Below the pieces are notes generated by a model, which worked only from the letters and a program-made list of their open reading frames with translations, ran no database searches and was not told the DNA's origin. Made by a program: the position numbers and the translations under genes. A DNA stretch of 64,000 nucleotides from Candidatus Saccharimonadia bacterium. GTDB lineage: Bacteria > Patescibacteriota > Saccharimonadia > UBA4664. This document shows positions 17,651-37,900 of the stretch, in pieces (position 1 is the stretch's first letter; each line of letters starts with the position of its first letter). The DNA lies in contig DATKIP010000093.1 of NCBI GenBank assembly GCA_035544015.1, forward strand, positions 1,156 to 65,155. The letters are read 5' to 3'.

Positions 17651-18439
17651 ATGATGAAAAAGAAACTACAAGAATTTTTAGACAAAGCCTTCGCACCGTA
17701 CGGTGAATTTCCGGCCCGAGCCGATGTGACGCACGAACTGCTCGCCAATCTCCAGGAGAAGTTTGATAACCTAAAAAGCCAAGGCAAGAGCGACGACGAA
17801 GCCTATCAGGCTACGGTTGACTCATTTGGCGATGTTGCCGAAATCATGGAGCATGTCCCGCACGACGAGGTAAAGCACCAGGCCGAGTCCAGCGTACATC
17901 GGGAATTCAAACACTCAGTATTGGTGCAGGCCGACCTCAGCAGCACCGAGTTGCCGGGAGCAGATTTTAGCGGCAGCGCCATCACAGAGGCCTCATTTGA
18001 TGGATCGAACCTGGCGGAAGCCAAGTTTAAAGGCACTGCCCTCAAAGGTGCATCCTTCGCCGGCGCCAACCTCACGCATGCCATGTTTAATGGCAGCGAT
18101 CTGCACAATGTGCGCTTTGACGGCGCCAACCTCGCGGGCACGCTACTCAAAGGCTCTGCCTTGCAGGGCGCGACCTTCGTAGGCGCCAATCTCACCAATA
18201 CCGATTTTACCCAGTCCGATGTCACCGGCGTCTCCTTCGATGGCCAGACCCTCGAAGGCGTGAGCTTCAATAGCGCCTCGCTCAAGAAAACCTCGTTCAA
18301 GAACGCCGTATTGCGCAATGTGTCATTCCATCACACGGCCGTGAAGCACGCCATTTTCGATGGAGCAACCATGGACAAAATTTCGTACGCTATCTTGAAA
18401 GGCGCCAAAGCCACATTAAATAACATCACGGTAATATAA
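17651..18439 (+). CDS. pentapeptide-repeat protein with N-terminal PadR-associated helical domain
   Basis: About 30 consecutive A(D/N)L/F-x-x pentapeptides (ADLSSTELPGADFSGSAITEASFDGSNLAEAKF...). Confidence 0.7.
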   Translation: MMKKKLQEFLDKAFAPYGEFPARADVTHELLANLQEKFDNLKSQGKSDDEAYQATVDSFGDVAEIMEHVPHDEVKHQAESSVHREFKHSVLVQADLSSTELPGADFSGSAITEASFDGSNLAEAKFKGTALKGASFAGANLTHAMFNGSDLHNVRFDGANLAGTLLKGSALQGATFVGANLTNTDFTQSDVTGVSFDGQTLEGVSFNSASLKKTSFKNAVLRNVSFHHTAVKHAIFDGATMDKISYAILKGAKATLNNITVI

Positions 18440-20355: not shown

Positions 20356-22284
20356 ATGAGCACGCGTGTTAGCTGGGGGCATCTTGCTCCTGCTGGAAAG
20401 CCGCATCCCACCACCAAATGGAGCCTGCTCATGGTGCTGTTGGTGGTGGTTGTGCTTGGTGTACCCGCACGCGTGGCGGCGGCGCTACCCTCGGTGCAAA
20501 GCCCCACGGGCCCCCAGAGTGGGGGAGTGTTTATCGGCGCCTACACCTTTGGTACCTATATTTCGTGTTCCGGCGGCTTTAGTTTTTCCAGTTCCTACTC
20601 CAACTCACTCGACGGCACGCACAGCTTCGGCTTCTGGGGAGCGGCCGACGGCTCGCTGCTCGTGAGCATCGACGGCGGGGGACTGCAGCTCGTAACCTCG
20701 TGCGGCGATCCGCTCACGGGGCCCAACACCAATGTGGCCAACTACACCGTGAGCAAAAACACCGCCCCGCCACCCACCCCAACGCCGACCCCTACGCCCA
20801 CCCCGACCCCCGGCGCCACCCCCACGCCGACGCCGCCGGCCGGCGGCGGACCTGGCGGCGGCTCCAGCGCCGGGGGAGCGAGCAGCCCGGCCGCCACGCC
20901 CCACGGCGCCGGGGCTTCGGCTGCCGGTGCCGCGGCGTCGCCGGTAGCGGCCAGCGCGTCCGGAGCCGCCGCCTCGCCCGCCGCCGGCCCGGCCGCCGCA
21001 TCCGGCGCCAGCCCCGCCCCGAGGGCCGCCGGCCCGCCCGCCATCGTACCGGCGGCCCTGCGCGCCGGCATTCCGCAGCCCGATGCGCGTGTGCTGGCCT
21101 ATGCCAACCTGGGCTTCGGCGGGCTGTTGCTCCTGGGCCTTGGCGCGCTGTTGTTGCGCTCGCGGCGGGCCCGCGAGGCCGTCGAAGCCGTCTGGCGTCG
21201 CAGCGCGGTCCGGCTGGAGCCGTACGTCTTCCGGCTGCATCACCTCACCCGCGGACGGCTGCGAGCGGCCGCGCGCGACGAACCCAAGCCGCCGGGCTTG
21301 AGCGGCCATCATCACAGCGGCAAACTCATAGCCCATCACCACACCTCGTACCCGGCGCTGGCCTTTCTGTTGCTGGCGTGTGGCGTACTCACCGCTGCCG
21401 CCTCGGTGTCGACGCAAGCCGCCGATTCGCAGCTCTCGCTGACCGTGTTGGGCCCGCCGCCCTCCACGCCCGCCACCATCGACCAGCCCGTCGACGGCGA
21501 GCACGTCAGCATCAACACCCAAACCACGCGGGGGAGTTGCCCCGCCGGACTCCTGGTCGAAATCTACCGCAACACTACGTTTGCCGGTAGTACCTCGTGT
21601 GATACTGGCGGCCTCTACAATCTCGTCGTCACGCTCGTCCCCGGCGCCAACGACCTCGTGGCTCGCGATGTCGACGCGCTCAGCCAGTACGGCCCCGATT
21701 CCGCGCTCGTGACGGTCTACTACGACGCCCCCGCCCCCACGCCTAGTCCTACGCCCACGCCGACCCCTACGACCCCGGGCGCCGCTCCGGCGGGCTCCGA
21801 AACCCCCACCCCCAAGCCCACCGCCACCCCCAAGCCCGCCCCGGCGCCCTCTCCCGCGCCGCTGCTGCTCGAGAGCGATACACACTTCTTCCAGGCTGCC
21901 GGCCCCGAGGTGGCAATGAATTGGCAACTCAAGCTAAGCGGCGGGGTAGCGCCCTACCGCCTCACCTGGAGTTGGGGCGACGGCTCCCAAGAAACCACCA
22001 CAACCGCGGCCGCCGGCCTCGTTACGGGCACGCATCGATATGCGCAGGCCGGTACATACCACCCCACGGTACGCGTCGACGATGCCGCCGGCACCGAAGC
22101 CGTCATCACCATGCTGGCCCAGATCAACGGTACCGTTCCGTCCGGCATTCTCCGCCCATTTGAAGCCCCCGGCAACTTGGTGCTGGTGTGGCCCGGCCTG
22201 GCCGTCACGAGCATCCTCGTGATCAGTTTTTGGCTCGGCGAGCGACACCGGCTATCGGTCAGTCGTGCCTCTCTAGCGCCATAA
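20356..22284 (+). CDS. Pro/Thr/Ala/Gly-rich membrane-anchored surface protein with PKD domain
   Basis: N-terminal signal anchor, PTPTPTPTPTPTP linkers, and the PKD-like signature WSWGDGSQ...GTHRYAQAGTYHPTVRVDDAAG, with a C-terminal TM. The start is moved to ATG 20356 because 20296 sits inside the terminator. Confidence 0.55.
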   Translation: MSTRVSWGHLAPAGKPHPTTKWSLLMVLLVVVVLGVPARVAAALPSVQSPTGPQSGGVFIGAYTFGTYISCSGGFSFSSSYSNSLDGTHSFGFWGAADGSLLVSIDGGGLQLVTSCGDPLTGPNTNVANYTVSKNTAPPPTPTPTPTPTPTPGATPTPTPPAGGGPGGGSSAGGASSPAATPHGAGASAAGAAASPVAASASGAAASPAAGPAAASGASPAPRAAGPPAIVPAALRAGIPQPDARVLAYANLGFGGLLLLGLGALLLRSRRAREAVEAVWRRSAVRLEPYVFRLHHLTRGRLRAAARDEPKPPGLSGHHHSGKLIAHHHTSYPALAFLLLACGVLTAAASVSTQAADSQLSLTVLGPPPSTPATIDQPVDGEHVSINTQTTRGSCPAGLLVEIYRNTTFAGSTSCDTGGLYNLVVTLVPGANDLVARDVDALSQYGPDSALVTVYYDAPAPTPSPTPTPTPTTPGAAPAGSETPTPKPTATPKPAPAPSPAPLLLESDTHFFQAAGPEVAMNWQLKLSGGVAPYRLTWSWGDGSQETTTTAAAGLVTGTHRYAQAGTYHPTVRVDDAAGTEAVITMLAQINGTVPSGILRPFEAPGNLVLVWPGLAVTSILVISFWLGERHRLSVSRASLAP

Positions 22285-22341
22285 ATTTGACAAGCCCTCG
22301 CGTAATGGTTACGCTTAATCCAAAATAAAACCAAAACGACC

Positions 22342-23454
22342 GTGACAAAATCAAAACGCACCCGCCGCCATCATCAACGAGTTTTTCGCCGCCGCCTTCT
22401 CATCGTCGGTGCTTTTATCGTTGGGCTACTGTTGCTGCCTAATCTCGGGGCCCGCGCCGCCACCCTCACGAGTGCTTCGGTAGGTATCTCTGACCCCCGG
22501 CCCAGCGCCATCAGCGCTAGTTACACCTTTACGGCTTCGAGCGTCACCACCGGCGCGCCGGGCACCATTAAATGCATCAAAATGCTCTACTCCGACACCG
22601 CCGCCGGCAGCACCGTCCCTGCGGGCATGTCCACCAATGGCGGGGGCGTCACATTTGACACCGCCGGCTCCAATTACGTCCCCACCCCAGCGTCGTGGAC
22701 CCTAAACAAGCCCGCCAACGGCACCCTCACGCTCACCAACGCCACCGGTGAAACCCCCGCTTCGGCCGCTGCGCGTAAAATCATCATCAACGGCATCACC
22801 AACTCATCCGCCGCCGATACCAAATTCTGGCTCAAATTCAACACCTACAACAACACCGACTGCGCCTCAAGCCCCGTCGACAACACCACCGTTTTGTTCA
22901 TTCTCACCAACGCCTCCACCCTGTCGCTCACCGTTGACGACACGCTCAGCTTCACGGTCAACGCCGTCGGCGCCGCGGCGGCCTGCGACGGCGCCACTAC
23001 CACGGCGGCCTCCACCGCCACCACCATTCCCTTTGGCACCGTCACCGCCGCCAGCAACGGCGTGGTCTGCCAAGACCTCCAGGCTGCCACCAACGCCACC
23101 GGCGGCTACACCATTTACGCCCGCTATACCGCCCAGCCCACCAACTCGTTGGCCCAGACCATCGCCAGCCACACCGGCACCAACCCCGCCCCGACCGCCT
23201 TTAGCGCCGCCGGCACCGAGGCCTACGGCTACACCACGGGCGACGCCACGCTGGGCACCGGTACCGCCAATCGCTTCACGAGCCCCACCCAAGAATGGGC
23301 CGGCCTCACCACCACCAACGCCGAGCTCGCCTACGAGCCCGCCGGCGTCACCGCCAGCACCTACCGCATCGGCCACCAAGTCGGCGTCTCTAGCACCACC
23401 CGCCCCGGCACCTACACCACCACCGTCATCTACACCTGTACGCCGACGTATTAG
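22342..23454 (+). CDS. secreted WxL-like surface protein, paralog 1 of 3
   Basis: Signal peptide, Thr/Ala/Ser-rich. WTL motif (PASWTLNKP). C-terminal GTYTTTVIYTCTPTY resembles the WxL-domain terminal motif tYtGtLtWtL with W replaced by Y. Confidence 0.6.
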   Translation: MTKSKRTRRHHQRVFRRRLLIVGAFIVGLLLLPNLGARAATLTSASVGISDPRPSAISASYTFTASSVTTGAPGTIKCIKMLYSDTAAGSTVPAGMSTNGGGVTFDTAGSNYVPTPASWTLNKPANGTLTLTNATGETPASAAARKIIINGITNSSAADTKFWLKFNTYNNTDCASSPVDNTTVLFILTNASTLSLTVDDTLSFTVNAVGAAAACDGATTTAASTATTIPFGTVTAASNGVVCQDLQAATNATGGYTIYARYTAQPTNSLAQTIASHTGTNPAPTAFSAAGTEAYGYTTGDATLGTGTANRFTSPTQEWAGLTTTNAELAYEPAGVTASTYRIGHQVGVSSTTRPGTYTTTVIYTCTPTY

Positions 23455-23455
23455 C

Positions 23456-23968
23456 ATGGCGCTGACTCCCACGCCAAGAACCCCCAAGTTTGAACTAGAG
23501 AGCTACATAACAGATGATTCATCACAGTACATGGAAACCTACTGCGTTAAGCCTGAAAACCTTAACGAAACCGAACTCACTTGGTACTGCTTCTTAGGCG
23601 ACATCCGCCTCAAAGACAACTTAGTTGATCTCTCCACGCGCCGGGAAGGGCTGCCGCTCTTGAACTTTGCCTTAGCCATGACTGAAATTGCAGAAGACCT
23701 TCGAAGTCATGCCAAAGCTACATATAACTTTACCGAGAACGCTGAGGAGATTAATTTTAGTAAAAACGGAAGCATGATCCAGATAACAGCAACTTACACG
23801 CATGGAACGGTTGAAGTTCCTCACCCGGAGTTCAGCAAGGCAGCAGATAAGTGTCTCTTAGATACTTACTCAGGCCTGACCGCGCGGTACCCAGGCCTAA
23901 AAAAGAACAATTTACTATCGCATATGTACAACCTAAAGCGCCTGAGCATCGAAGAGGAGAATTCGTAA
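23456..23968 (+). CDS. hypothetical protein encoded by an AT-rich insert between WxL-like paralogs
   Basis: 170 aa from the ATG overlapping the paralog-1 stop. Its composition is markedly lower in GC than its neighbours. No domain recognised. Confidence 0.4.
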   Translation: MALTPTPRTPKFELESYITDDSSQYMETYCVKPENLNETELTWYCFLGDIRLKDNLVDLSTRREGLPLLNFALAMTEIAEDLRSHAKATYNFTENAEEINFSKNGSMIQITATYTHGTVEVPHPEFSKAADKCLLDTYSGLTARYPGLKKNNLLSHMYNLKRLSIEEENS

Positions 23969-24054
23969 GGCGAGAACGCTGGCAACCACTTTTCCCCTTG
24001 TACAAAGCATAACCACTATGAGACACTACCACCAACTCTGAAGGGAGTGTGTGA

Positions 24055-25191
24055 GTGAATCGTTTTCAACGAGCGGCTGCGGCGCTGGGTTTGCGCCTGC
24101 CGAAGCCGCCAAACCAGCCATTGCGCTATGTCGTAACTCTGGCCTTGTTGGCCTCGGTGCTCCAATCGGGCACCGCCATCGCGGCCGGCAGCCTCAGCAG
24201 CGCTTCGGTGGCGCTGAGCGACCCGCGGCCGAGCGCCACGAGCAGCTACACCTTCACCGGCTCATCGGTCGACGGCGCCACGGCCGTGAAATGCGTGAAG
24301 GCCGTGTGGGCCACGACCGCGGCAGGCGACACTGCGCCCACAGGCTTTAGCGGCACCGCCGGCACGGTCGCCGCCGCATCGTCCACGCTCATCAACTCGT
24401 CCGCCACCGGCTGGAGCCTGGCCCGCAGCGACGGCACCAGCTCCAGCGGCCAAAACAATGTCTTCCAATACACCAATGCCACCGGCGTCACGCCATCGAC
24501 CACTACCGGCGCCACCTTCGTGCTAGCCGGCCTCGTTAATAGCTCGCTTGGCGACACCACCTACTACCTCCAGCTGCGCACCTTTGCTAATGCCGACTGC
24601 GCTTCAAGCCCGATCGACAACGCCACCATCCCGTTCATCAACACCGCCGGCTCCACCGTGTCTCTATCAGTCGACCAATCGCTCACGTTCACCGTCGACG
24701 CCGTTACCGCCAGCACGTCGTGCGACGGCACCACCACCACGCAGGGCTCCACTGCCACCACCATTCCGTTCGGTACCATCACTTCCTCGAGCAACGGCGT
24801 GGTCTGCCAAGACCTCCAGGCCGCCACCAACGCCGCCGGTGGTTACACCATTTACGCCCGCTACACCGCCGCCCCCACCAACGCGCTCGCCCAAACCATC
24901 GCCGACCACGCCGCCACCAACGCCAGCCCCACCACCTTTAGCGTCCCCGGCACCGAGGCCTACGGCTACACCTCGAGCGACAGCAGCCTCGGCACCGGTA
25001 CCGCCGCCCGCTTCACCACTGGCGGCCAAAAGTGGGCGGCCATGACCACCACCAACGCCGAGCTCGCTTACGAGTCCGTCGGCGTCGCCACTACTACGTA
25101 TCATATCGGCCATCAGGTGGGTATCTCGGGCACCACCTTTCCGGGCACCTACACCACCACCATTATTTACACCTGCGTGCCGGTTTACTAG
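24055..25191 (+). CDS. secreted WxL-like surface protein, paralog 2
   Basis: GTG start after AAGGGAG. WSL motif. C-terminus TYTTTIIYTCVPVY. Confidence 0.6.
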   Translation: MNRFQRAAAALGLRLPKPPNQPLRYVVTLALLASVLQSGTAIAAGSLSSASVALSDPRPSATSSYTFTGSSVDGATAVKCVKAVWATTAAGDTAPTGFSGTAGTVAAASSTLINSSATGWSLARSDGTSSSGQNNVFQYTNATGVTPSTTTGATFVLAGLVNSSLGDTTYYLQLRTFANADCASSPIDNATIPFINTAGSTVSLSVDQSLTFTVDAVTASTSCDGTTTTQGSTATTIPFGTITSSSNGVVCQDLQAATNAAGGYTIYARYTAAPTNALAQTIADHAATNASPTTFSVPGTEAYGYTSSDSSLGTGTAARFTTGGQKWAAMTTTNAELAYESVGVATTTYHIGHQVGISGTTFPGTYTTTIIYTCVPVY

Positions 25192-25289
25192 CAGAATCGC
25201 TTGGCAAACATAAGAAGTTTGACACCCGTTGTGCAAACTGCTACGCTCGACATTAAGAACTCATTAAAAAGCTGTGGAGAAAAACAAGA

Positions 25290-26414
25290 GTGAAAAGCCG
25301 CATCATCCGAGCGGCGGCCGCGTTGGGAGTACGCGGACCGCGAAATATCAAAGCTAAGCTGTCAAAATTTGCAGCTGTCCTGATTGCCCTCATGGGGCTG
25401 AGCCTCAACGCTGGCGTCGCCAACGCCGCGACGCTGTCGAGCGCCAAAGTCGCCTTGAGCGATCCACGCCCCAGCACCACCGCGGTCAACTACACGTTTA
25501 CCGGTTCCACAGTCACCACCTCGCTCATTAAATGCATCAAGCTGGTATTTGCCACCACCGCGACCGGTTCCACTGTGCCTACCAACTTCGATTCCAGCGT
25601 TGGCGCCGTGGCTCTCAACAATGCCGGTACCAACTACGTACCAACTCCAGCTTCGTGGAGCTTGAGCAAAGTCACCAATGGTACGCTCCTGCTCACCAAC
25701 GCCACCGGTGAAACCCCCGCCTCGGCCAGCGCTCGCACCATTTCGTACGACGGCATCACCAACTCGTCCGTCGCCGACACCGCCTACTATCTGCGGGTGA
25801 GCACCTTCAACAACATCGACTGCGCCACCAGCCCGGTGGATAACGGCTCAGTTCAGTTCATCAACACCAACGGTTCCACGCTCTCGCTCACCGTCGACAA
25901 CACCCTGAGCTTCACCGTCAACGCCGTAGCCGGCAGCCAGGGCTGCGACGGCACCACTACGACGCAGGCCTCCACCGCCACCACCATTCCCTTCGGCACC
26001 ATCACCTCCGGCGCCAACGGCATCGTCTGCCAAGACCTCACCGCCGCCACCAACGCCACCAATGGGTATACCATTTACGGCCGCTACACCGCCAAGCCCA
26101 CTAATGCCCTGAGCCAGACCATCGCCGACTTCACCGGCTCCAACACCACCCCGACCACCTTTAGCGCCGCCGGCACCGAGGCCTACGGCTACACCACCAA
26201 CGACTCCACGCTGGGCACCGGCTCGGCCAACCGCTTCACCAACGGCGGCCAAAAGTGGGCCGCCATGACAAGCACCAACGCTGAGCTCGCCTACGAAGCC
26301 GCCGGCATCACGAGCACCACCTACCGCATCGGGCACCAGGCGGGCGTGAGTCTCACGACCTTCCCAGGAACCTACACCACCACCGTCATCTACACTTGCA
26401 CTCCGATCTATTAG
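25290..26414 (+). CDS. secreted WxL-like surface protein, paralog 3
   Basis: WSL motif. C-terminus TYTTTVIYTCTPIY. Long blocks identical to paralogs 1 and 2 (for example SSNGVVCQDLQAATNA, AGTEAYGYT). Confidence 0.6.
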   Translation: MKSRIIRAAAALGVRGPRNIKAKLSKFAAVLIALMGLSLNAGVANAATLSSAKVALSDPRPSTTAVNYTFTGSTVTTSLIKCIKLVFATTATGSTVPTNFDSSVGAVALNNAGTNYVPTPASWSLSKVTNGTLLLTNATGETPASASARTISYDGITNSSVADTAYYLRVSTFNNIDCATSPVDNGSVQFINTNGSTLSLTVDNTLSFTVNAVAGSQGCDGTTTTQASTATTIPFGTITSGANGIVCQDLTAATNATNGYTIYGRYTAKPTNALSQTIADFTGSNTTPTTFSAAGTEAYGYTTNDSTLGTGSANRFTNGGQKWAAMTSTNAELAYEAAGITSTTYRIGHQAGVSLTTFPGTYTTTVIYTCTPIY

Positions 26415-26432
26415 ATCGTAAGCTAAGGCTCT

Positions 26433-27389
26433 ATGAAGGCTGTTTCCTTACTCCGCCGAACCCTCCTTACTCTCACCGCCGGCGCCGCAGGAGCAGCCTT
26501 CGCCGTGTCGGCACCGGCCCATGCCGCCACGTCGCAGAGCTACCAAATCTCACCGCCCACTGCCAATTACACCGGCAACAAGGGCGGCATCCAGAGCGGC
26601 ACCATCAAAGTCACCAACCTCACCGGCGCGCCGCTCTCGGTGCGCACTGGCAAAGAAAATTTTGTCGCTAAAGGCGAAGAGGGCGAGATCGAACTCGTTG
26701 ACGCCGCCGACCCGCTCTACTCGCTAGCGCCGTGGTTTTCGCTCAACGCCGCGCAGCTCGATATCCCCGCGCTGGGCACCAAAGAGCTCCATTACACTAT
26801 CGCCATCCCCACCGATGCCGAGCCGGGTGGCCGCTACGGCTCTATCGTGTTTAGCACCATTCCGCCCAAGCTCGCCAGCGGCGAATCCGGCGCCGCGGTG
26901 CAGCAGACGATCGCCGGCATCGTGTTTATGCGCATCGACGGCCAGGCCAACGAACAGCTCGAGGTAGCCTCATTTGGCGCCGAAAAGAGCTTTTACGACT
27001 ACGGGCCGGTCAAATTCCTCACTCGCATAAAAAATACCGGTACGGTTCATGAAAAAGCCACTGGCACCATCACCATCAAAAATATGCTTGGATTCAAAGT
27101 CGCCACCATTCCCCTCGACGAACACTTTGTGATCCCGGGTGCCATCCGCCGGCTGCACAATGACTGGCCTACCGGAGGTCAACACCCATTCCTGTTTGGC
27201 CGCTATACCGCCACGCTCGACGCCAAATACGGCAACGGCCAGACGCTTACCGCCTCCGCCAGCTTCACGGTGGTTCCATGGAAGCTTGTCGCTCTCATCG
27301 TGGTCGGATTGCTCGCAGTCATCGTGATCTTCTGGCGCGGCCGCCCGCGCTTCGCCCGCGCCTTCCGTATCCTAGCCGGCCGCGAATAG
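26433..27389 (+). CDS. DUF916-like cell-surface protein (signal peptide, C-terminal TM anchor with basic tail), predicted partner of WxL-like proteins
   Basis: 318 aa. Motifs SYQISPPTANYTG and GGRYGSIVFSTIPP are shared with the genes at 33257 and 51784. C-terminus WKLVALIVVGLLAVIVIFWRGRPR. TAAGG SD. Confidence 0.55.
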   Translation: MKAVSLLRRTLLTLTAGAAGAAFAVSAPAHAATSQSYQISPPTANYTGNKGGIQSGTIKVTNLTGAPLSVRTGKENFVAKGEEGEIELVDAADPLYSLAPWFSLNAAQLDIPALGTKELHYTIAIPTDAEPGGRYGSIVFSTIPPKLASGESGAAVQQTIAGIVFMRIDGQANEQLEVASFGAEKSFYDYGPVKFLTRIKNTGTVHEKATGTITIKNMLGFKVATIPLDEHFVIPGAIRRLHNDWPTGGQHPFLFGRYTATLDAKYGNGQTLTASASFTVVPWKLVALIVVGLLAVIVIFWRGRPRFARAFRILAGRE

Positions 27390-27431
27390 CACCGCCCTTG
27401 GCGCTTATATACTTAACGCACCAAGGGCGAT

Positions 27432-27935
27432 GTGATGGCGCGAGTTAAAAAGTTATTTTTACGCTATAGACGTATAATTGAGCATATGAAATCGCTTTAT
27501 AGGCTCTATAGGCTGACCCGCTATATTGATAATGAATCCCATCGCATAGATAAAAAATTCCCAGATGAGCTGAGGAATAACAACATACGGCGACGACCTA
27601 AAAAGAATGACATACTCAAGGGGTACAGCAGGAAGCATAAGCGCCTATCCTATGAAAAAATCGCTGATTTATTTGAGCAAGCCGAGAACGAGGGTTATAT
27701 CGAAGTCAATTCTTATGATTTAGTGAGGGTGGGTATCCCGCGAGGCACGGACTTTTTAGACTTTTTTATCATACCGTGGGGCTTGCTGAATCCTATGTTA
27801 GATAAATATGGCAAATTGGCATCTCTAATCATAGGCTTAGTAGGTGGGGTCGTAGTCACTATCGCTACCACTTTAGCTATTTGGACAGCGAAGTCATTAT
27901 TGAGTCTAGTTCAATATCTAATTAGACATCTCTAG
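27432..27935 (+). CDS. hypothetical protein, basic N-terminal region and C-terminal TM (AT-rich island)
   Basis: 167 aa in a low-GC region. Confidence 0.4.
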   Translation: MMARVKKLFLRYRRIIEHMKSLYRLYRLTRYIDNESHRIDKKFPDELRNNNIRRRPKKNDILKGYSRKHKRLSYEKIADLFEQAENEGYIEVNSYDLVRVGIPRGTDFLDFFIIPWGLLNPMLDKYGKLASLIIGLVGGVVVTIATTLAIWTAKSLLSLVQYLIRHL

Positions 27936-28008
27936 CTTAGAGCTCGTGTACTACTTTTTTTTCGGCTTCCGCTCCGGCTCCGTCTTTACGATCTTCTCCA
28001 TTGCCTTA

Positions 28009-28236
28009 TCAAATGACATCGGCAGGCTGAACGGCTGCTGGCGAGTCTGCTTCTCGGGCTGGGGCTTCGGCTGTTTCTCTGGCTTCATGATGTTTATTAT
28101 ACCTCGTTGTGTTTCTGATCGATTCTCGTTCCCGTCTTCTCTTGCGACTATGTTCACGCTCTACCACCACGAAAACTATAGGCAAGATGATGGGAAGTAG
28201 GATGATACCCAGAATGAGCTTTAATGCAGCTTTCAT
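28009..28236 (-). CDS. small membrane protein (AT-rich island)
   Basis: The start was chosen at the ATG preceded by AAGGAAG (reverse complement of about 28240-28247). A TM helix ALKLILGIILLPIILPIVFVVV. An overlapping alternative-frame ORF makes this uncertain. Confidence 0.35.
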   Translation of the reverse strand: MKAALKLILGIILLPIILPIVFVVVEREHSRKRRRERESIRNTTRYNKHHEARETAEAPAREADSPAAVQPADVI

Positions 28237-28687
28237 AACTTCCTTTGTGGTCCCCAAATAAAAAGGCGGCCACCACTTAGTGCAAGTGTTGAGCCGCACA
28301 ACGAGTTTTTGCGCCCGCCATCGGTGATGACCGCCTTAGTTAGCGCAAAAACCCACAAGACTTGTGGGAAAACTTGTTATACGGCTCAACGAAGTAATTA
28401 TGGCTGGTTATTGAGGCTCAGTAAAGCCCCAGAGAATAAATACCGAGTTCTGGACAACCCGCTCAAGCTCTGATATGCCTGTAGGTAAGGTTCGCTCCGA
28501 GATCACAATTGCGGCAACCGAATGTTAGTAGCTCGGGAGACCATGTCTCCACGACAGCATTTTGTTGCTACATATTTCCGGTGCGTTCCTACCACTTAAA
28601 CGGAGGAACCAGAAATGGGAATACTCGATTGGCCGCCTAGACGGCCCGAGCTTCCCCCGATAAAGACAACCTAGTCGGGGTATAGTA

Positions 28688-28713
28688 AAGGCCCCGTAAG
28701 GGGCCTTTACTTA
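28688..28713 (+). terminator. perfect 11-bp hairpin GTAAAGGCCCC-GTAA-GGGGCCTTTAC inside a roughly 580-nt non-coding stretch
   Basis: Read directly from the sequence; followed by TTACAAATTAATTG. Confidence 0.35.
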
Positions 28714-28818
28714 CAAATTAATTGCCGTATTGAGTACGGAAATTAATTGTACGCTACCGAGATCACGCCCTTATCATAGCGGGTTGTTTTGAGGTGCGCA
28801 AGAACCGTTATTTTGCGA

Positions 28819-29193
28819 TTAGCTCCTTCGCGGTGGTTGCGGAACTGCAAGAGGCTCACTAGCTTCAATGCGTGCAGCCTCCACCGCTTCTCTCCCAGCT
28901 TTCTCACTGCGTATCTTCTCCCTAGCAGCTTCTTCTTTGCGCACTTTCAGCTCAATGGTGTCACCAGCAGACGCGTAGTAGAGTATGGCCAAAAATCCAA
29001 AAATGAATCCCGACAATATACCTCCAGCAGTACTACGACCTCGCTGACCCGCCATGACACCACAAATGATGGCGAAGAATACACCTATGATAATAAGAAT
29101 ACCGAGCAGTCCAGCCAGGGCTGTTCCGGCGGCTGCACCGACTTCTGTGGCTGCTTGTGCAGTTGCTGGATCGAGAGTTGGGGTTGGGGTCAT
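28819..29193 (-). CDS. small membrane protein, hypothetical
   Basis: 124 aa. SD AAGGAG 6 nt before the ATG on the reverse strand. TM region GLLGILIIIGVFFAIICGV. Confidence 0.5.
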   Translation of the reverse strand: MTPTPTLDPATAQAATEVGAAAGTALAGLLGILIIIGVFFAIICGVMAGQRGRSTAGGILSGFIFGFLAILYYASAGDTIELKVRKEEAAREKIRSEKAGREAVEAARIEASEPLAVPQPPRRS

Positions 29194-29405
29194 GGGGATC
29201 TCCTTTAGATCGGAAACCGCCTCAATAAAATAAAGAGGCGACTGCTAGTTAGTAGAGGTGTTGACGCTCCACAACGGATTTGGACCCGCTTTCGCTAACA
29301 GCCGCCTGTATGAGTCCAAAAAATGCCACGGTGTGGCTAATTCCGATGTAGAGCGTCAACAAGGTAATCATACCTGATATAATAACTGCCTAAAAGGGAC
29401 CAGAT

Positions 29406-30347
29406 ATGCCTGACAATGAAGAGTTGCCTTTGCCCAGTGAGGGCGAAAGCAAAATCGACCTTTTCAAAGGCAAAGAAATCCGTAAAGTTTTACATGAAGG
29501 CGAGTGGTGGTTCGTTGTCGTAGATGTTATTGCTAGTCTCACTGGATCGATTGATCCAACTGGTTATGTAAAGGACATGCGGCGTCGAGATAAGGGTCTA
29601 GCAGAAGGGTGGGGGCAAATTGCCACCCCCCTTCGCATTGAAACCTCTAAAGGGCCACAAAACATCAATTGTGCCAATATTGAGGGGCTTTTCCGTATAA
29701 TGCAGTCCGTGCCCTCTCCAAAGGCAGAGCCATTCAAAAAATGGCTGGCAAAGTCTGCATTTGAACGGTTACAGGAAATCGACAATCCCGAGCTGGCAGT
29801 CCAACGTGCCATTGCTCTTTATCGGGCAAAGGGTTATCCCGATGGGTGGATCGATACTAGAATTAAAAATAAGGTCAGTCGAGAAATCCTGACTAAAGAA
29901 TGGTTTGAGCGCGGCGTACAGGATATGGATTACGCAATCTTAACAGATGCAATTTCCATTGAGACTTTCGGATTGAGCACGGCCAAGCACAAAGAGCTCA
30001 AAGGACTAAAAAGCCAGAGTCTCCGCGATAATATGACGCCAATTGAGCTAACCCTTACTACATTGGGTGAGCAATCCGCCACCGAGATAACCCGTGCTAA
30101 TAATGCTCAGGGGAAATGGCAAAATCTTACGGCGGCAAAAGCTGGTGGTAAAATTGCTGGAAACGCAAGAATGCAACTTGAGGAAGCAACAGGGCAAACG
30201 GTTGTATCTGATCAAAGCTATCTTACTGAACGTCAAAGACAAAATAATGCCCAAATTGAGGCTACAATTAATGATACTCTTAGCCGGATATTACGCCTTC
30301 CGGGGACTGACCCGCTTGAAGCAGGCGAGATTGGTACAGTCAGCTAG
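29406..30347 (+). CDS. Bro-N domain protein / DNA-damage-inducible protein D (DinD)-like
   Basis: The N-terminal region LFKGKEIRKVLHEGEWWFVVVDV resembles the Bro-N fold. Its stop overlaps the IS transposase stop, so it is probably 3'-truncated by the IS. Confidence 0.6.
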   Translation: MPDNEELPLPSEGESKIDLFKGKEIRKVLHEGEWWFVVVDVIASLTGSIDPTGYVKDMRRRDKGLAEGWGQIATPLRIETSKGPQNINCANIEGLFRIMQSVPSPKAEPFKKWLAKSAFERLQEIDNPELAVQRAIALYRAKGYPDGWIDTRIKNKVSREILTKEWFERGVQDMDYAILTDAISIETFGLSTAKHKELKGLKSQSLRDNMTPIELTLTTLGEQSATEITRANNAQGKWQNLTAAKAGGKIAGNARMQLEEATGQTVVSDQSYLTERQRQNNAQIEATINDTLSRILRLPGTDPLEAGEIGTVS

Positions 30348-31237
30348 CCAATAAGTCCCTTATACGTCAGCCGTTTCCCGCTCGCATATCCGAACCAGTT
30401 CTCGAATCGCTCACCATCCTTCATCTCGCGGGTATTGTACCGATAACCAAACTCCCCCGCGTACTTCGCCATATGCTTCCGGCTTACTCCAATATAGATG
30501 GCGTCGATACCAGACTTAAGATGGCTCCAGTACCCCTCAATTGTGTTCGTGTGCACCGTTCCGACCACGTATTCTTTGGTGTGATTTACCGAGTAATGCG
30601 GATAGCCCATAGCAGTGAGAGCGTGATACGCCTTGAGCTGGTCAGTCATAACCGTAGCCCTTGGGTCAATGTCTTTGATGATGTGAGGCAGAAGATAGGG
30701 AGCTGACCCCTTGGTCACAATATGAGTCTTGATGTGGCCTTTGCGCTCCACAAGTCCCATCACGGGTGTCTTGTTCGTAGACTTGTTACTGGCGTTCATG
30801 CCAACGCCCTTTTGATGGCCGCCAATATAGGTTTCATCTACTTCTACAATTCCATTTAGAAGTCTGTCACTTCCATCTAAAACCGCATGGCGGATACGCT
30901 GGAGCAGGAACCAGGCACTTTTCTGGGTAATGCCAAGATGTTTGCTCATCTGGATAGAGCTAACGCCTTTCTTGTGGGATGTAAGCAAATATATAGCCAA
31001 GAACCACTTCTGGAGGGGAAGACGAGACTCTTCAAAGATTGTGCCAATACGAGCCGAGAATTGTTTCATACAAGCCGTGCATTTGAATATCCGGCGAGAC
31101 TTGAGGGTGTAAACATCTAAGCAGCCGCAGTGGGGGCAAATAGGCTCACCATGCCAACGAGATTCAGCTAGATAGGCGTGGCAGGCATCTTCGTTGGGGA
31201 AGCGGTTGTAAAAGGCGATGAGATTGAGGGTTTCCAT
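30344..31237 (-). CDS. IS1595-family transposase (ISXO2-like, N-terminal zinc ribbon plus DDE)
   Basis: 297 aa. CPHCGC...CTAC zinc ribbon and the DDE region (...IVEVDETYIGG..., ...VMTDQLKAY..., ...NTIEGYWSHLK) are typical of IS1595. Confidence 0.85.
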   Translation of the reverse strand: METLNLIAFYNRFPNEDACHAYLAESRWHGEPICPHCGCLDVYTLKSRRIFKCTACMKQFSARIGTIFEESRLPLQKWFLAIYLLTSHKKGVSSIQMSKHLGITQKSAWFLLQRIRHAVLDGSDRLLNGIVEVDETYIGGHQKGVGMNASNKSTNKTPVMGLVERKGHIKTHIVTKGSAPYLLPHIIKDIDPRATVMTDQLKAYHALTAMGYPHYSVNHTKEYVVGTVHTNTIEGYWSHLKSGIDAIYIGVSRKHMAKYAGEFGYRYNTREMKDGERFENWFGYASGKRLTYKGLIG

Positions 31238-31285
31238 ACATCAAGCTTAGTGCAGGACATTGGTTGCGTCAAGTATATAAGCGCC
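30348..31285. mobile_element. IS1595-family insertion sequence (boundaries approximate)
   Basis: Imperfect terminal inverted repeats: CTTATACGTCAGCC near 30359 against GGTTGCGTCAAGTATATAAG near 31262. The element would be about 0.94 kb. Confidence 0.45.
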
Positions 31286-31361
31286 CCGCCCTTGCATGTT
31301 CGCAAAATGTTCGGTATATTGGCATCGCCAGCCAGTATATAGTAGACATCAAGGAGCGCCG

Positions 31362-31844: not shown

Positions 31845-31864
31845 TCCCCCGAGCCGCCGCCTGG

Positions 31865-31870
31865 TATAAT
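31865..31870 (+). promoter_or_regulatory. extended -10 (TGgTATAAT) for a leaderless transcript
   Basis: TGGTATAAT at about 31862-31870. The ATG at 31878 lies 7 nt after the hexamer. Confidence 0.4.
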
Positions 31871-31877
31871 TTTGCTA

Positions 31878-33260
31878 ATGCTAAAGCCTAAACGACACCT
31901 TGGCTCGATTGCAGCGGCCGCCCTGCTGCTGGCTCCCGCCGTCGCCATGCAACTCCTGCCGGCCGCCGCCTCGGCCGACCTGTTACAAAGCACGCACTTT
32001 CGGCTCGATCCGAATGTGGCCGACACCTTCGGCGGCGCCACCGGCTCGGCCTCATACCAGCTCACCGATGCCGGCGGTGAGGGAGCAGTGGGCTCGGGCG
32101 CTAGCCAGAGCTACAAACTCACCCAGGGTTATGTCAGCCAGCTGGCGCACTCGCTTTCGCTCTCGGTGCTGCCCGGCTCCACCTATGCCTACTGGCCGCT
32201 CGACACCGGCACCGGCACCGTCGCCTACGACGTCGGCACCACTGCCGACGACGGCACCCTCGTAGCCGCGCCGAGCTGGACGACCGGCATCGTGGGCCAA
32301 GGCGTCACGCTCAATGGCTCCAGTCAATATGTTTCTACCGCCACCTCGGTCGCCAATCCTACGACCTTCACGCTCGAAGTGTGGTTCAAATCCACGAGCT
32401 CCAACGGCGGCGAGCTCATGGGCCTGGGCAGCGCCCAAACCGGCTCCAGCGCCACCGTAGACCGCGTGCTGTACCTCGATAATGCTGGCCACATCGTGTT
32501 TGGCACCAAGCCGAGTGCCTTCAAAACCGTCGCCACCGCCTCTACCTACACCGACGGCTCGTGGCACCACGTGGCTGCCACGCTCGGCGCCACCGGGTTG
32601 CTGCTCTACGTGGATGGCCTGCGCCAGGGCACCGACGCCAGCACCACCACGGTGGCCAACTTCAGTGGCTACTGGCGCCTCGGCTTCGATAGCCTCGCCG
32701 GCTGGCCCTCGGCGCCCACGAGCAATTTCCTGGCCGGCACCATCGATGAAGCCCGCGTCTACACCCGCGCCCTGAGCGACGCCGAGATCAAAAACGACTA
32801 CACTGCCGGCGCCAACGCCCTCAAAGGCGCCTTCACGCTGCCCAACATCACCCCTGGCCAGTCCCAAACCTACTCAGCCGACGCGGTAGTGCGCACCGAC
32901 GCCGCCGGCTACGACCTTTACATGCAGGCGCTCACCCCACTCACCCACACCGACACCGTCACTACTATCCCCAATGTCTCCGGCACCATTGCCTCACCGG
33001 CCGCCTGGACCGAAGGCACCACGAAGGGCATTGGCTTCACGCTCACCGCCGGCACCTCCCTGGAAGGCAAATGGGGGACCAGTCCGGGTTACGCCTATGC
33101 CGGCCTGCCCAGCACCGCCACCGTTTACCACTCGCGCACCGGCCTCACCGCCGGTGTCCCCGAGCTCACCACTATCCAATACCGCGCCGACACCACCAGC
33201 AGCCAAAAGCAGGGCACCTACTCGGCTACCATTGTTTACACGGCGACCGTTCGGCCATGA
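31878..33260 (+). CDS. secreted LamG (concanavalin-A-like lectin) domain protein with WxL-like C-terminus
   Basis: Signal peptide. LamG-like core (...FTLEVWFKSTSSNGGELMGLG...GSWHHVAATLGATGLLLYVDG...ARVYTRALSDAEI). C-terminal tail QGTYSATIVYTATVRP. The track ORF starts at TTG 31872. Confidence 0.6.
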   Translation: MLKPKRHLGSIAAAALLLAPAVAMQLLPAAASADLLQSTHFRLDPNVADTFGGATGSASYQLTDAGGEGAVGSGASQSYKLTQGYVSQLAHSLSLSVLPGSTYAYWPLDTGTGTVAYDVGTTADDGTLVAAPSWTTGIVGQGVTLNGSSQYVSTATSVANPTTFTLEVWFKSTSSNGGELMGLGSAQTGSSATVDRVLYLDNAGHIVFGTKPSAFKTVATASTYTDGSWHHVAATLGATGLLLYVDGLRQGTDASTTTVANFSGYWRLGFDSLAGWPSAPTSNFLAGTIDEARVYTRALSDAEIKNDYTAGANALKGAFTLPNITPGQSQTYSADAVVRTDAAGYDLYMQALTPLTHTDTVTTIPNVSGTIASPAAWTEGTTKGIGFTLTAGTSLEGKWGTSPGYAYAGLPSTATVYHSRTGLTAGVPELTTIQYRADTTSSQKQGTYSATIVYTATVRP

Positions 33261-34141
33261 ATGCCCCATTGCGCCTGCTGCTGGTCAGCCTCACCCTGGC
33301 GACCGTAGGGCTCGCAATGCCCGCGCCGGCCCGCGCTGACGCCCCCGGTTTGCAAGCCAGCCCGCTCGAGTACATCGACACGCTCACCCCGGGCCATATC
33401 AAAAACGGTTACGTTGACGTTTCCAACCCCGGCGACGGATCCCTCGCCATCCGCACGAGCGTGCGCGGTTTTCGCCAAACCGGCACCGACGGCCGCCTCG
33501 AATTTTTCGACGACCCGGAGCTCATCGGCGGCATCAGCCTCGGCCTGAGCAGCTTTGAGCTAGGGCCCCGAGAAGCCGTGCGTGTGGTGTTTCACGTCGA
33601 CCCGTCCAAGCTCCCTGCCGGCGGTGTGTATGCCGCCCTCTTTTTCCAAACCGTCCCTCCGTCGCAATCTCCCAATAGCTCGTACGTAGCCGAAAGCGCC
33701 CGCATCGGCACCTTGCTCGAGCTCGTAAACGGCCCGGCCACGCCGCATCACGGCGCTGTCGCCAAACTCGATCTGCCGTTCCTGCAGCTCGGCCGCGGCC
33801 TCACCGGCACACTGCAGTATCAAAACACCGATCGTACGGCCCACCCCGTCGGCTACCGTCCGGCTCTCACGCTGAGCGTGCTGCCGTGGGCGGCTCACCC
33901 CAAGCTCGCCACCGGTCTCGTCCTGCCCAGCGCCACCCGTGAGTTCGCCATCGAGCGGCCAGGCTCATTTTTTGGCCTGTTACCCGTCACCATTACCGAC
34001 ACCGACACGCATCAAACCACCACGCGCTGGGTATTGGTGTGCACCGCGTGGTGCCAGTGGCTATTGCTGGTAATTGCCACCGCCCTCACGCTCGGAGTAG
34101 CGCGCAAAATCGGGCCCAGCCGGAGATCTACGTTAAAGTGA
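33257..34141 (+). CDS. DUF916-like cell-surface protein, second copy
   Basis: ATGA overlap with the upstream gene. Signal peptide. AGGVYAALFFQTVPP motif. C-terminal TM plus ARKIGPSRR tail. Confidence 0.55.
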   Translation: MNAPLRLLLVSLTLATVGLAMPAPARADAPGLQASPLEYIDTLTPGHIKNGYVDVSNPGDGSLAIRTSVRGFRQTGTDGRLEFFDDPELIGGISLGLSSFELGPREAVRVVFHVDPSKLPAGGVYAALFFQTVPPSQSPNSSYVAESARIGTLLELVNGPATPHHGAVAKLDLPFLQLGRGLTGTLQYQNTDRTAHPVGYRPALTLSVLPWAAHPKLATGLVLPSATREFAIERPGSFFGLLPVTITDTDTHQTTTRWVLVCTAWCQWLLLVIATALTLGVARKIGPSRRSTLK

Positions 34142-34416: not shown

Positions 34417-34499
34417 CCAACACCAGCATTGACTGTACGGTTTTTGTTCCATATATTCAATGGCATGCCCGCGATAAACTAGCAGTAACGGAGAGTCCC

Positions 34500-34916: not shown

Positions 34917-34990
34917 AAGGCTTACCGCAAGCCACAGTCTTGCCCAAACCATAAGCACGATGTTAAAATGCTTATGTAACAAAGGTTGTG

Positions 34991-37900
34991 ATGGAGTTAC
35001 GCCGCCGGCTTCGCATAGGGAGAATCATTCTCCTGAGCACAGCGGCTCAGCTCGTAGCGACTATTTTTGGCGTCTCCGCAATTTTGGCGCCCATGCCGGT
35101 ACAATCCGCCCAAACCGTTCCCTACATGGTGAACTTCCAGGGCCGCCTCACCGACAATTCCGGCAACATCTTGAGCGACGGCCTATACAACGTCAAATTT
35201 CGCCTCTGGACCCTGGCTTCGGGCGGTACCAACGCCTGGGAAGCCGACCGAGTGCGCGGCGCCTCCGACCACCGCATCCAGATCACAAATGGCCTCTTCA
35301 ACATCCAATTTGGCGACACTACGCTCGGCGATCCCGCGCTTGGCCCCACGCTGTTTAGCAGCGGCACCTACCCCCTGTATCTGGAGGTTGAGCTACCCAC
35401 TCCCGCCACCGCCACCTGCTCCACCAACGGCTGTGCGAGCTTCACCGAAGGCGCCATGACCCCGCGCCAGCCGCTCGCCTCCACGCCCTACGCCTTCAGC
35501 GCCGACACCCTCGACGGCCTCGATTCGGCCGCTTTTGGCCAGCTCTCGGCCAGTAACACCTTCACCAGCGCCAATATTTTTAGCCCCAGCTCCGGTGTCG
35601 CCATCACGATCAAACCCGCCGCCGCCACTCACTCGCTCGACGTCAAAGACTCAAGCAATGTAATCCAAGCCTACTTCGATGCCAGTGGTATTCTCAATGT
35701 TGGGCAAACCATTCAGGCCACCACCTCTACCGTCGATCTGGGGACGAGCGGCTCCACCTTCCGTACCGGGTACTTTGGCACGAGCGTCCAAACCCCCACG
35801 CTCAACGCCGCTACTTCCGGCGCCACCATCACCACCAACGCTGGCACCTTGCAGCGCACCTCCTCCGGCGGCCTCACTATCGATCTCAAAGACGCCGGCG
35901 CCACCACACTCACCGTCACCAACTCGGGCGGGGGAGTGGCAGGCATCAGTGCCACCGGCGGCCTCACCATCGGCACCGGCAGGGTCATCACTGTGGGCGC
36001 CACCGCCGGCACCGGCGTTACCTGCAGCTCTGGCCAAATCCTCGACGCCATCACCGTCGCCGGCGGTGTCGTCACTGGCGGCAGCTGCATCGCGGCCGGC
36101 GGCGGCGACAAATTCCTCGCCGCCTGGACCTCACAGCAGGCTACCACCGCCACCAACACCCAGACCACGGTGCAGTTCACCGGCGCCGCCAACTCCGCAC
36201 CGAGCTTCAATAATGGCACGCACGTGCTCACCCTGCCCTCGAATGCCTCCCGGCTACTCATAGAATCCAAGGCCGGCGGCGGTGGTGGTGGCTCAGTGGG
36301 CACCACGAGCGCCGTGAAGGCGGCCGGTGGTGGCGGCGAAGGCGGCTTGTCGCAGCTATTCGTCGGCGGCAGCCTGGCTGCCAACTATTATTTCAAAGTT
36401 GGCGGCGGCGGCGCGGGCGGCGCCTCAGGCGGCACCAACACCGGCACCACCGGGAGCTCCAGCTGCCTCGGCACCAACTCCGGCGACGCCTGCACCACGC
36501 CGGCGGTCAACGCGGTCGGCGGCACCGGCGGCACTGGGGTCACCACCGCCGTGCCCGCCACCGGCGGCGCGGGCGGAGCGGCCGGCTCGGGCGCCGGCGA
36601 CGTGAAGCTCTCCGGCGCGCCCGGCTGCACCAGCACCGCCACCGCCACCACGGCCATCGTCAGCGGCTGCGGTGGCGGCCAAGGCGGCGGCGCCAGCCAG
36701 GCCGGAGCCGCCGCTGCCGCAAACGGCATCGCCGGCACCTCGGGCGGCGGCGGGAGCGGCGGCATCCAGGGCACCGCCGCGGTCACCTCGCGCGCCGGCG
36801 GCAACGGCGGCGACGGCTACGTGAAGATCTCCGTCTACGTCACGGTCGCCGGCACCGGCAACCCCGCCACGCTCCAGTCCGCCTACGACAACGCCACCAA
36901 CCCCGAAATCACCCTCTCTGGCAACGGCCTCACCGTTCGCGACTCGTCCGGGGGGCTGGGCAGCAACCTGTTTGAGGTCCAGGACAACGCTGGCGCCACC
37001 ACCTATCTTGGCGTCACCACCTCCGGCATCACCACCAGCGGCACCGTCACCGCCAGCACTACCGGCACCATCAACGGCCTGTCCGTGAGCGCCGGCGCGC
37101 TTAGCGGCATCACCGGCTACACCCAAGCCTCGGGCACGTTTAGCCAAACCTACGCCACCGCCACCGCCGGCACCTCCGGCCAAGTTCTTGGCTTCTCCAA
37201 CACCAATGCCGGCGCGGGCGTCACCGTCCAGGGCACCAAAATCACCCCCAGCAACGCCACCCCCGGGTCCGGCACCAACACCCTCAACGTCCTCGACTTC
37301 GCCGCCGGCAACTCGCTTGGTGCCGGCGCGCTCACCAACGGCATCAACTTCGAATCCGCCACCGGCTACACCGCGTTCATCAACACCCCCACCTACAAGC
37401 TCGAATCCGACGGCGACCAAACCGCCGCCTTCACCGCCCTCGACGGCACCTCCACCGCCAACGGCGCCGGCACCAACGCCACCACCCTCATCCTCACTTC
37501 GGCCGCCAACTTCGACATCGGCAATTACGTGCAGGTCAACTCGGCCAACTGCGGCGGCACCGGCGTCAACCCGTGCTATGCCAAAATCACGGCCAAAGCC
37601 ACCAACACGCTCACCATCACCCCCGCGCTCACCTGGGCCAACGCCGCCGTCGTGAATGAATACCACCTGCCCGAAATCGGCGGCACCGACACCGCCCAAA
37701 CCCTCGCAGGCCGCTACGGCCGCGGCTACTTCATCGCCGGTGTCGCTACCGGCAACGGCACCACCTATTACAATGAGGACTCCATCGACTCCAGCCTCAC
37801 CTCGTTCAACCTGCTCACCTCGAACGTCACCACGCTCAATATCGGCACCGCCGCCACTACACTTGCCATTGGCTCGGCCAGCACCAGCGTCAGCGTTCCC

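Follow-up and report, generated by a model that had tools for sequence, protein, structure and literature searches.

Within a window of 64,000 nucleotides from contig DATKIP010000093.1 (GenBank assembly GCA_035544015.1) of a Candidatus Saccharimonadia bacterium, three open reading frames (ORFs) coding for paralogous secreted proteins are followed by a gene for a membrane-anchored partner, and the locus raises the question of which surface structure these genes encode. In a sequence-only reading of positions 22342-27389, they had been taken for a Csc cell-surface complex, i.e. WxL-like proteins with a DUF916-like partner, in a non-Firmicute context. The four ORFs, their shared C-terminal tail and the architecture of the partner were borne out by the ORF coordinates, the C-termini and an AlphaFold2 (AF2) model. 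The system extends well past these positions (20431-39934), and both this extent and a 170-residue insert between paralogs 1 and 2 had been overlooked. The analysis presented here indicates that the locus very probably codes for a pilus of the Pam type in a soil bacterium of the Candidatus Saccharimonadia (Candidate Phyla Radiation (CPR)/Patescibacteria) and is, as such, a new and diverged member of a very recently described kind of pilus.

The Pam pilus has been described in Candidatus Mycosynbacter amalyticus, a parasite of the class Saccharimonadia whose thin filaments were solved by cryo-electron microscopy (cryo-EM) (Troman et al., bioRxiv 10.64898/2026.03.03.709456). According to this preprint, the system is composed of the PamA and PamB pilins, the PamC and PamD chaperones and the membrane anchor PamR. 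The pilins polymerise by donating a linker strand to the next subunit, and PamC and PamD are PapD/FimC-like chaperones carrying a C-terminal transmembrane (TM) helix. PamB has a mass of 38.7 kDa, the linker and the C-terminal domain (CTD) of PamA and PamB are more conserved than the N-terminal domain (NTD), and beside the pam operons lies a 'tail fibre-like protein'. The NCBIfam Pam models NF058578 and NF058581 stem from the same work.

The ORF upstream of the pilin genes (start at 20296 or 20431; 662 residues as scanned, 617 in the gene call of the source contig) was matched by NF058578 (CPR_pilus_PamR, a model described as RbmA-like) with an E-value of 1.7e-59 and 201 bits over residues 366-657 of the 662-residue ORF. 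As the equivalog cutoff of the model is 300, the protein is considered as a homolog of PamR and not as a certified equivalog. The PamR-like part consists of a PKD/FnIII-like domain (Pfam PKD, E-value 2.4e-7) and a C-terminal TM helix. It is preceded by an N-module made of a signal peptide, a domain of ~100 residues, a Pro/Thr/Ala-rich linker, a TM segment and a basic loop, in which neither a family match nor a pilin-like domain was found. The PamR-like gene is kept upstream of the pilins in the related loci L002-L017; in the last of these, from the complete genome CP064960.1 (7784-9866), the N-module and the PamR-like part are two separate ORFs.

The precursors of the three paralogs have masses of 37.9-38.2 kDa. 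The curated model of the Pam pilin CTD, NF058581 (CPR_Pam_pilin_C), was aligned to residues 226-370 of paralog 1 with 24 bits (cutoff 55; model positions 3-148 of 148), and on paralogs 1 and 2 the alignment spans the whole domain, namely the C-terminal ~145 residues. The same model matched 33 of the 52 members of the pilin family (best E-value 3.3e-6). The paralogs are 55-65% identical overall (65% between paralogs 1 and 3), with pairwise identities of 41-61% in the NTD, 60-85% in the linker and 73-75% in the CTD. Over the pilin family, the mean conservation was 0.84 for the linker, 0.82 for the CTD and 0.62 for the NTD, as in the published pattern of PamA and PamB. The long identical blocks pointed out in the earlier reading correspond to the conserved linker and CTD, but the divergence that it had placed in a central Thr-rich region lies in the NTD. 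In the AF2 model of paralog 3, a nine-strand N-terminal beta-sandwich (about residues 47-192, strands 51-192) is followed by the conserved linker strand (206-212) and by a CTD of about residues 225-374 (232-372). The C-termini of the three proteins, PGTYTTTVIYTCTPTY, PGTYTTTIIYTCVPVY and PGTYTTTVIYTCTPIY, follow the consensus PGTYTTT[VI]IYTC[TV]P[TVI]Y. The pilins end in TP.Y without TM segment, and the motif LP.[TSA]G was found in no protein of the cluster.

Two further features of the pilins were observed. Each of them contains two likely intradomain cysteine pairs and a fifth cysteine, four residues from the C-terminus and with no obvious partner (C366, C374 and C370; nucleotides ~23437, 25174 and 26397). 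It is conserved in at least 90% of the pilin family and could be the site of an intersubunit disulfide or of a modification. The predicted mature N-terminus, A-T-L-S-S-A-x-V-x-[LI]-S-D-P-R-P-S (e.g. 25428-25470), is also strongly conserved, its D, P, R and P being invariant or nearly so across 52 homologs although the NTD is otherwise variable; this conservation within a variable domain hints at a putative processing, modification or interaction site.

The partner protein, chaperone 1, was modelled by AF2 (predicted local distance difference test, pLDDT, 83) with an N-terminal signal-like helix (residues 3-23), two beta-sandwich domains and a TM helix (283-314), after which the protein ends with the basic tail RGRPRFARAFRILAGRE. 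The predicted fold is that of a PapD-like chaperone. Its paralog, chaperone 2, was aligned with the chaperone 1 family over 239 columns (hhalign probability 96.5%, E-value 8.3e-10), and its gene is kept after the LamG gene in relatives. When the window proteins alone were scanned, no Pfam match was obtained for the three pilins and the 318-residue chaperone.

The LamG protein is a secreted protein with a concanavalin-like lectin domain, ending in GTYSATIVYTATVRP, whose C-terminal 130 columns are related to the pilin CTD profile (hhalign 96.3%, E-value 1.5e-9); no pilin-like domain was detected by hhalign in its N-terminal part or in the inserted ORFs. Its gene directly follows that of chaperone 1 in L003, L005, L006, L008, L009 and L012. 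This protein is likely a tip or adhesin subunit, as we infer from the fusion of a lectin domain to a pilin domain and from the dedicated chaperone, which is the architecture expected for such a candidate.

Gene order was assessed by comparing the window proteins with the ORFs found in 30 related loci. The order N-module and PamR, two or three pilins, chaperone 1, LamG protein, chaperone 2 and a protein of more than 1600 residues was kept in more than 12 Saccharimonadia genomes, and in more distant CPR lineages pilin-chaperone pairs were found in alternation. The window copy of the locus is split by two low-GC insertions (Table 1).

Taxonomic distribution is in agreement with this assignment. 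A Candidatus Saccharimonadia metagenome-assembled genome (MAG) encodes a protein 100% identical to chaperone 1. The gene of chaperone 1 and the LigA gene of the window also occur together on a 152-kb JGI metagenome contig and on others of up to 0.5 Mb. Among the 592 homologs of paralog 3, each one whose taxon name is informative belongs to the Saccharimonadia or Patescibacteria. When GTDB was scanned with one genome for each species, 29 loci were found, labelled mostly as Saccharimonadia, Levybacteria, Microgenomatus, Kaiserbacteria or 'Patescibacteria group', with a few unassigned and four Gammaproteobacteria. On the basis of the homolog taxonomy and of the identity to the Saccharimonadia MAG protein, the sequence belongs to the CPR and a Firmicute origin of the window was rejected, which agrees with the non-Firmicute context noticed earlier. 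The high GC content (0.61-0.65 for the three pilin genes and that of chaperone 1, 0.61-0.70 for the genes of the locus) is a property of the soil Saccharimonadia lineage.

The four MAGs labelled Gammaproteobacteria (L018, L020, L021 and L023; e.g. OZ246394.1, 1.6 Mb) carry Pam-like pilin-chaperone pairs, and in L020 and L021 the pilins share 70-72% identity with that of a Levybacteria MAG (L019). These loci reflect either mislabelling or a transfer outside the CPR, and they bear on the claim that Pam pili are exclusive to the CPR.

Table 1. Coordinates of the features of the proposed Pam-type locus in the 64-kb window (aa: amino acids).
Feature	Position	Strand	Characteristics
Fusion ORF, N-module and PamR-like anchor	20431..22284 (PamR-like part about 21391-22266)	+	NF058578, Pfam PKD
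Pilin paralog 1, PamB-like	22342..23454	+	370 aa, precursor of 37.9 kDa; NF058581 E-value 3.3e-5
Inserted 170-aa ORF	23456..23968	+	GC 0.466 (neighbours ~0.65), without signal peptide
Pilin paralog 2	24055..25191	+	378 aa; NF058581 E-value 3.6e-5; most divergent NTD of the three
Pilin paralog 3	25290..26414	+	374 aa; AF2 model pLDDT 84.3
Membrane-anchored chaperone 1	26433..27389	+	318 aa, PapD-like/DUF916 (WxLIP)-like, two domains
Low-GC mobile insertion	27432..31260		3.8 kb, GC 0.40-0.485; splits chaperone 1 from the LamG gene
166-aa TM protein	within 27432..31260		no Pfam, NCBIfam or PHROG match
Bro-N/antirepressor-like gene	29406-30347		phrog_15286 E-value 4e-70; Pfam families recorded for the source contig
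IS1595-family transposase	30344-31237	-	Pfam families recorded for the source contig
Secreted LamG protein with pilin-type CTD	31872..33260	+	Pfam Laminin_G_3 E-value 1.8e-24
Membrane-anchored chaperone 2	33257..34141	+	294 aa, paralog of chaperone 1, C-terminal TM segment
Gly/Thr/Ala-rich secreted protein	34988..39934	+	1648 aa; after chaperone 2 in L002-L017

Compared with the published description, the locus resembles the Pam system of M. amalyticus in several respects: both belong to the class Saccharimonadia and a PamR homolog is present; the pilins are PamB-sized and two-domain, their NTD has nine strands, their linker is conserved and their CTD is aligned, below the cutoff, with the Pam pilin C-domain model; the chaperones are Sec-exported two-domain proteins with a C-terminal TM helix, with neither usher nor sortase; several pilin paralogs lie in one locus, near a large fibre-like protein. 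The two systems also differ. Their gene order is not the same: in the window, the anchor comes first and is followed by three PamB-like pilins, a chaperone, the lectin subunit and a further chaperone. In addition, PamR carries an extra module fused at its N-terminal side, the locus is interrupted by two mobile insertions and there is no pilin of the size of PamA (55 kDa). All the matches to the NCBIfam models lie below their equivalog or domain cutoffs, which places the locus on a diverged branch of the Pam system.

Several points weigh against the assignment as a Pam-type pilus. The curated cutoffs are missed by both NCBIfam matches (24 versus 55 and 201 versus 300 bits), and paralog 3 gave no NF058581 match at all in the NCBIfam scan. 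A single-domain PamT-like tip pilin was not identified in the locus, and the architecture of the LamG candidate differs from that of PamT. Finally, the 'open' groove of the CTD and the position of the linker in the pilins are read from the predicted AF2 secondary structure only.

By homology to the Pam system, we infer that the window proteins may form a filament, with donor-strand exchange, the subunit order and an adhesin role as follows. The mechanism is modelled on the cryo-EM-based model for Ca. Mycosynbacter amalyticus. All components would be exported by the Sec pathway. In the pilins of ~38 kDa, a variable NTD of nine strands would precede a highly conserved linker strand and a CTD that is conserved as well and has an incomplete immunoglobulin-like (Ig-like) fold, and the membrane-anchored two-domain chaperone would hold the pilin by inserting a beta-strand into the open CTD. 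In the following head-to-tail polymerisation, which would need neither usher nor sortase, the linker strand of a neighbouring subunit would replace the strand of the chaperone in the CTD. The PamR-like protein would terminate the fibre and anchor it in the membrane via its own C-terminal TM helix, and the LamG-lectin protein, with its pilin-type CTD and its own chaperone paralog, would be the likely distal adhesin. The paralogs differ mainly in the NTD, presumed to be exposed, and with them the shaft would probably vary in composition or antigenicity.

The proposal that the paralogs are WxL-like proteins was examined with PF13731, the Pfam model of the WxL domain. At E<=1, no match was obtained for the three window pilins, nor for any of the 52 members of the pilin family. 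As positive controls, the Paenibacillus WxL protein (30.1 bits) and 67 of the 88 members of a comparison set were detected; this set was sampled from the 293 matches of a profile search of 1.84 billion proteins in which the Paenibacillus WxL family was used as seed. Comparisons by hhalign with WxL alignments of 88 or 140 members gave probabilities of 9-41%, mostly over the last ~28 columns: 8.9% for the pilin-family profile versus the WxL set (E-value 0.0037, 25 columns), 24.5% for a diverse set of pilin CTDs versus 140 WxL domains, 20.4% for the LamG CTD and 41% (score 30.1) for the merged CTD set. The pilin profile gave no significant hhalign result against a single WxL sequence or a 19-member Paenibacillus alignment, no WxL domain was among the PDB structure matches of the models, and a synthetic WxL-tail peptide had no match by tblastn versus plasmids. 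Column shuffles of the alignment scoring 30.1 gave a mean of 10.4 (sd 1.9, maximum 15.9), none of 100 reaching 30.1, and the reversed alignment gave 11.2. The score is also above that of the NTD control, but unrelated window proteins reach 20, so that the margin is modest.

The shared feature is the last strand or two, written aG-x-Y-t-x-T-v-i-Y-x-x-t-P-x-Y in Pam, A-G-T-Y-r-S-t-f-T-x-T in the Paenibacillus WxL proteins and G-x-Y-x-g-x-L-x-W-x-L in classical WxL proteins. At the candidate WxL positions, the pilin CTD has G-Y-T-I and I-Y-T-C, with no Trp in either. The early W-[TS]-L motif highlighted by the sequence-only reading is indeed present, but it is no more than expected by chance: it lies in the NTD and not in the domain bearing the tail, its W in paralog 2 is not aligned with that of paralogs 1 and 3, and this W is not among the invariant or at least 90% conserved columns of the 52-member alignment. 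The pilins have no PF13731 match and no W-x-L motif pair in the CTD, and their membership of the WxL family is not supported on these grounds. As the resemblance of the tails exceeds that of column shuffles, a remote homology of the pilin CTD and the WxL domain is possible but unproven from these profile comparisons.

The assignment of the partner to DUF916 was supported at the level of the family and not for the window protein itself. PF06030 (WxLIP_PGBD, i.e. DUF916) matched 41 of 42 chaperone 1 orthologs at E<=1 (best E-value 4.9e-9), five of them above the gathering score of 27.3 (P0216, P0225, P0230, P0235 and P0240; 27.5-36.7 bits). These five are 50-56% identical to chaperone 1 of the window, which has no PF06030 match; its closest orthologs have none or a sub-threshold one of 14-18 bits. 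In the profile check proposed for the four proteins, neither PF13731 nor PF06030 was found in the window proteins, PF06030 being found in the orthologs. When plasmids were searched by tblastn with P0235, DUF916 proteins annotated as such were found in Paenibacillus and Arthrobacter; the relatives found in Deinococcus and Embleya carry no such annotation. On the plasmid from Paenibacillus, the gene for the DUF916 protein adjoins an RCC1-WxL gene and a small WxL gene, the latter matched by PF13731 with 30.1 bits, and the chaperone 1 family profile was aligned with the DUF916 protein over 215 columns covering both domains (93.8%, E-value 1.8e-7). These profile matches give good support to a distant relationship of chaperone 1 with the DUF916/WxLIP proteins encoded in the WxL clusters of Firmicutes. 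Searches of PDB sequences by phmmer and hmmsearch with the pilins, the chaperone and the family profiles gave nothing relevant, and EfmWxLIP1 was not reached.

DUF916-like TM proteins were also observed outside the Firmicutes and the CPR, on plasmids of Arthrobacter (NZ_CP099467.1, L035) and Deinococcus (NZ_CP026517.1, L036) and in Embleya (NZ_CP108785.1). The protein encoded next to the Arthrobacter gene is WxL-like, with an hhalign probability of 97.5% against the WxL profile. The secreted proteins of 190, 292 and 1013 residues that flank the Deinococcus gene product matched neither the WxL nor the Pam profile.

These data were considered in terms of a Csc/WxL-type complex, in which the paralogs would be WxL-like proteins bound non-covalently to the wall and stabilised by a bound WxLIP, with no filament. 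In WxL/Csc clusters, the architecture of WxLIP is DUF916-DUF3324-TM, described by PF06030, PF11797 and a TM helix (Siezen 2006; Hassan & Williamson 2022, 2023). Such a complex would account for a partner of the DUF916/WxLIP lineage, for the C-terminal strand motif G-x-Y-x-x-T-x-x-[YW], common to WxL proteins and scoring above the 100 column shuffles, and for the alignment of the LamG subunit, which crosses both WxL-motif positions over 112 columns. The cluster logic is also like that of the published WxL definition, with small subunits, one large protein with N-terminal binding domains and a TM-anchored Ig-like partner. We nevertheless regard this complex as unlikely. PF13731 is absent from all 52 family members, and hhalign probabilities stay at 9-41% when the same WxL profile finds the actinobacterial (Arthrobacter) WxL-like protein at 97.5%; Y-T-I and Y-T-C replace the W-x-L motifs without any Trp, and the W-x-L of the NTD is not conserved. 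Unlike WxL proteins, which are described as peptidoglycan-bound and not filamentous, the window pilins have an extra NTD and a conserved linker strand, and the locus belongs to another phylum and is devoid of LPXTG (CscD-like) proteins. As defined by Hassan et al. 2023, a cluster has at least two neighbouring WxL-domain genes, and the pilins neighbouring chaperone 1 are devoid of PF13731. By contrast, the curated Pam models match, and the Pam relatives form filaments by cryo-EM. The name CPR Pam pilus (bioRxiv 10.64898/2026.03.03.709456) is therefore preferred to that of Csc complex. Even less probable in our view is that the paralogs are secreted Ig-like adhesins or envelope proteins acting as monomers, the TM-anchored Ig-like protein being an unrelated, co-located scaffold and its similarity to pilus chaperones reflecting the general beta-sandwich fold only.

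The Pam-type pilus proposed here was also compared with other pili. Chaperone-usher pili (Pap/Fim, CFA/I, Csu) differ from the window system, which has neither usher nor outer membrane and whose chaperones are membrane-anchored; in addition, the window pilins are two-domain and their donor strand would be an internal linker and not an N-terminal extension. No homology to chaperone-usher pili was detected at the sequence level, and no usher family matched the ORFs scanned between 13 and 40 kb. Unlike sortase-assembled Gram-positive pili, the window pilins have no LPXTG sorting signal.

The relation of the chaperones led us to consider, tentatively and as a possibility that we hold to be somewhat doubtful, that the Pam pilus and the WxL/Csc clusters, together with the DUF916 clusters of Actinomycetota and Deinococcus, are branches of one ancient usher-less system of membrane-anchored chaperones and donor strands in monoderm-type envelopes. 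The chaperone half of this common ancestry is well supported; for the pilin/WxL half, the shared C-terminal strand motif and the sub-threshold profile similarity may be indicative. If true, WxLIP (DUF916-DUF3324) would be a PapD-like assembly chaperone and not a peptidoglycan or host binder, and the WxL domain would be the counterpart of the Pam pilin CTD, WxL proteins being strand-complemented and possibly polymerised. The WxLIP paper describes an AF2 prediction in which a beta-strand of DUF916 is inserted into the WxL domain, and in the WxL bioinformatics paper the N-terminal strand of WxL is proposed to rearrange over a buried WxL platform. What WxL/Csc clusters do in lactobacilli, enterococci and Listeria has been a question since 2006, and a homologous chaperone in a donor-strand system defined by cryo-EM offers a testable hypothesis, namely that WxLIP chaperones WxL proteins by strand complementation.

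The Pam preprint (bioRxiv 10.64898/2026.03.03.709456) does not mention WxL, DUF916 or DUF3324, and the WxLIP paper does not mention chaperones, PapD or donor strands. In the searchable literature, nothing joins DUF916 with Saccharibacteria or the WxL domain with PapD, no chaperone, PapD or donor-strand concept was found for WxLIP, nor any link of WxL/DUF916 with the CPR, and WxL and Patescibacteria co-occur only in an unrelated study of the mouse gut microbiota. The link between the Pam system and WxL clusters at the level of the chaperone is therefore apparently unpublished.

A role in the host contact of parasitic or episymbiotic CPR bacteria is assumed for Pam pili. The locus of the window would be a diverged and widely conserved version from soil Saccharimonadia, with three shaft paralogs and a lectin subunit with its own chaperone, and the lectin subunit and shaft paralogs are concrete candidates for host-recognition determinants.

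Among the other genes of the locus, the 1648-residue protein had no Pfam, NCBIfam or PHROG match and no pilin-like domain by hhalign; it may be the 'tail fibre-like protein' reported beside pam operons. The 170-residue ORF begins one base past the stop codon of pilin 1 and is gene-called in the source contig. It had no Pfam, NCBIfam or PHROG match and is missing from all related loci, and it looks like a recent insertion in the pilin array which is not part of the conserved system. Two small coiled-coil proteins are encoded nearby. In the 182-residue protein of 31296-31844 (+), some twelve 'PAFDxAF'-like octads are arranged in tandem ahead of a coiled-coil tail, and a homolog of this protein sits before the LamG gene in L015; the other small coiled-coil ORF (34500-34916) lies before the gene of the 1648-residue protein.

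Upstream of the Pam locus, at a distance of a few kb, genes are found for a type IV pilin-like protein (16334-16990, +; N_methyl motif, E-value 9e-8) and for a pentapeptide-repeat protein (17651-18439, +), followed by a PadR regulator, according to the source contig, and by an ABC transporter pair. Downstream, a 705-residue protein (42913-45030, +) has both a GlxA-like radical copper oxidase region (NF052501, E-value 4e-58) and a lectin domain at its C-terminus; as a secreted enzyme, it is unusual for a reduced CPR genome.

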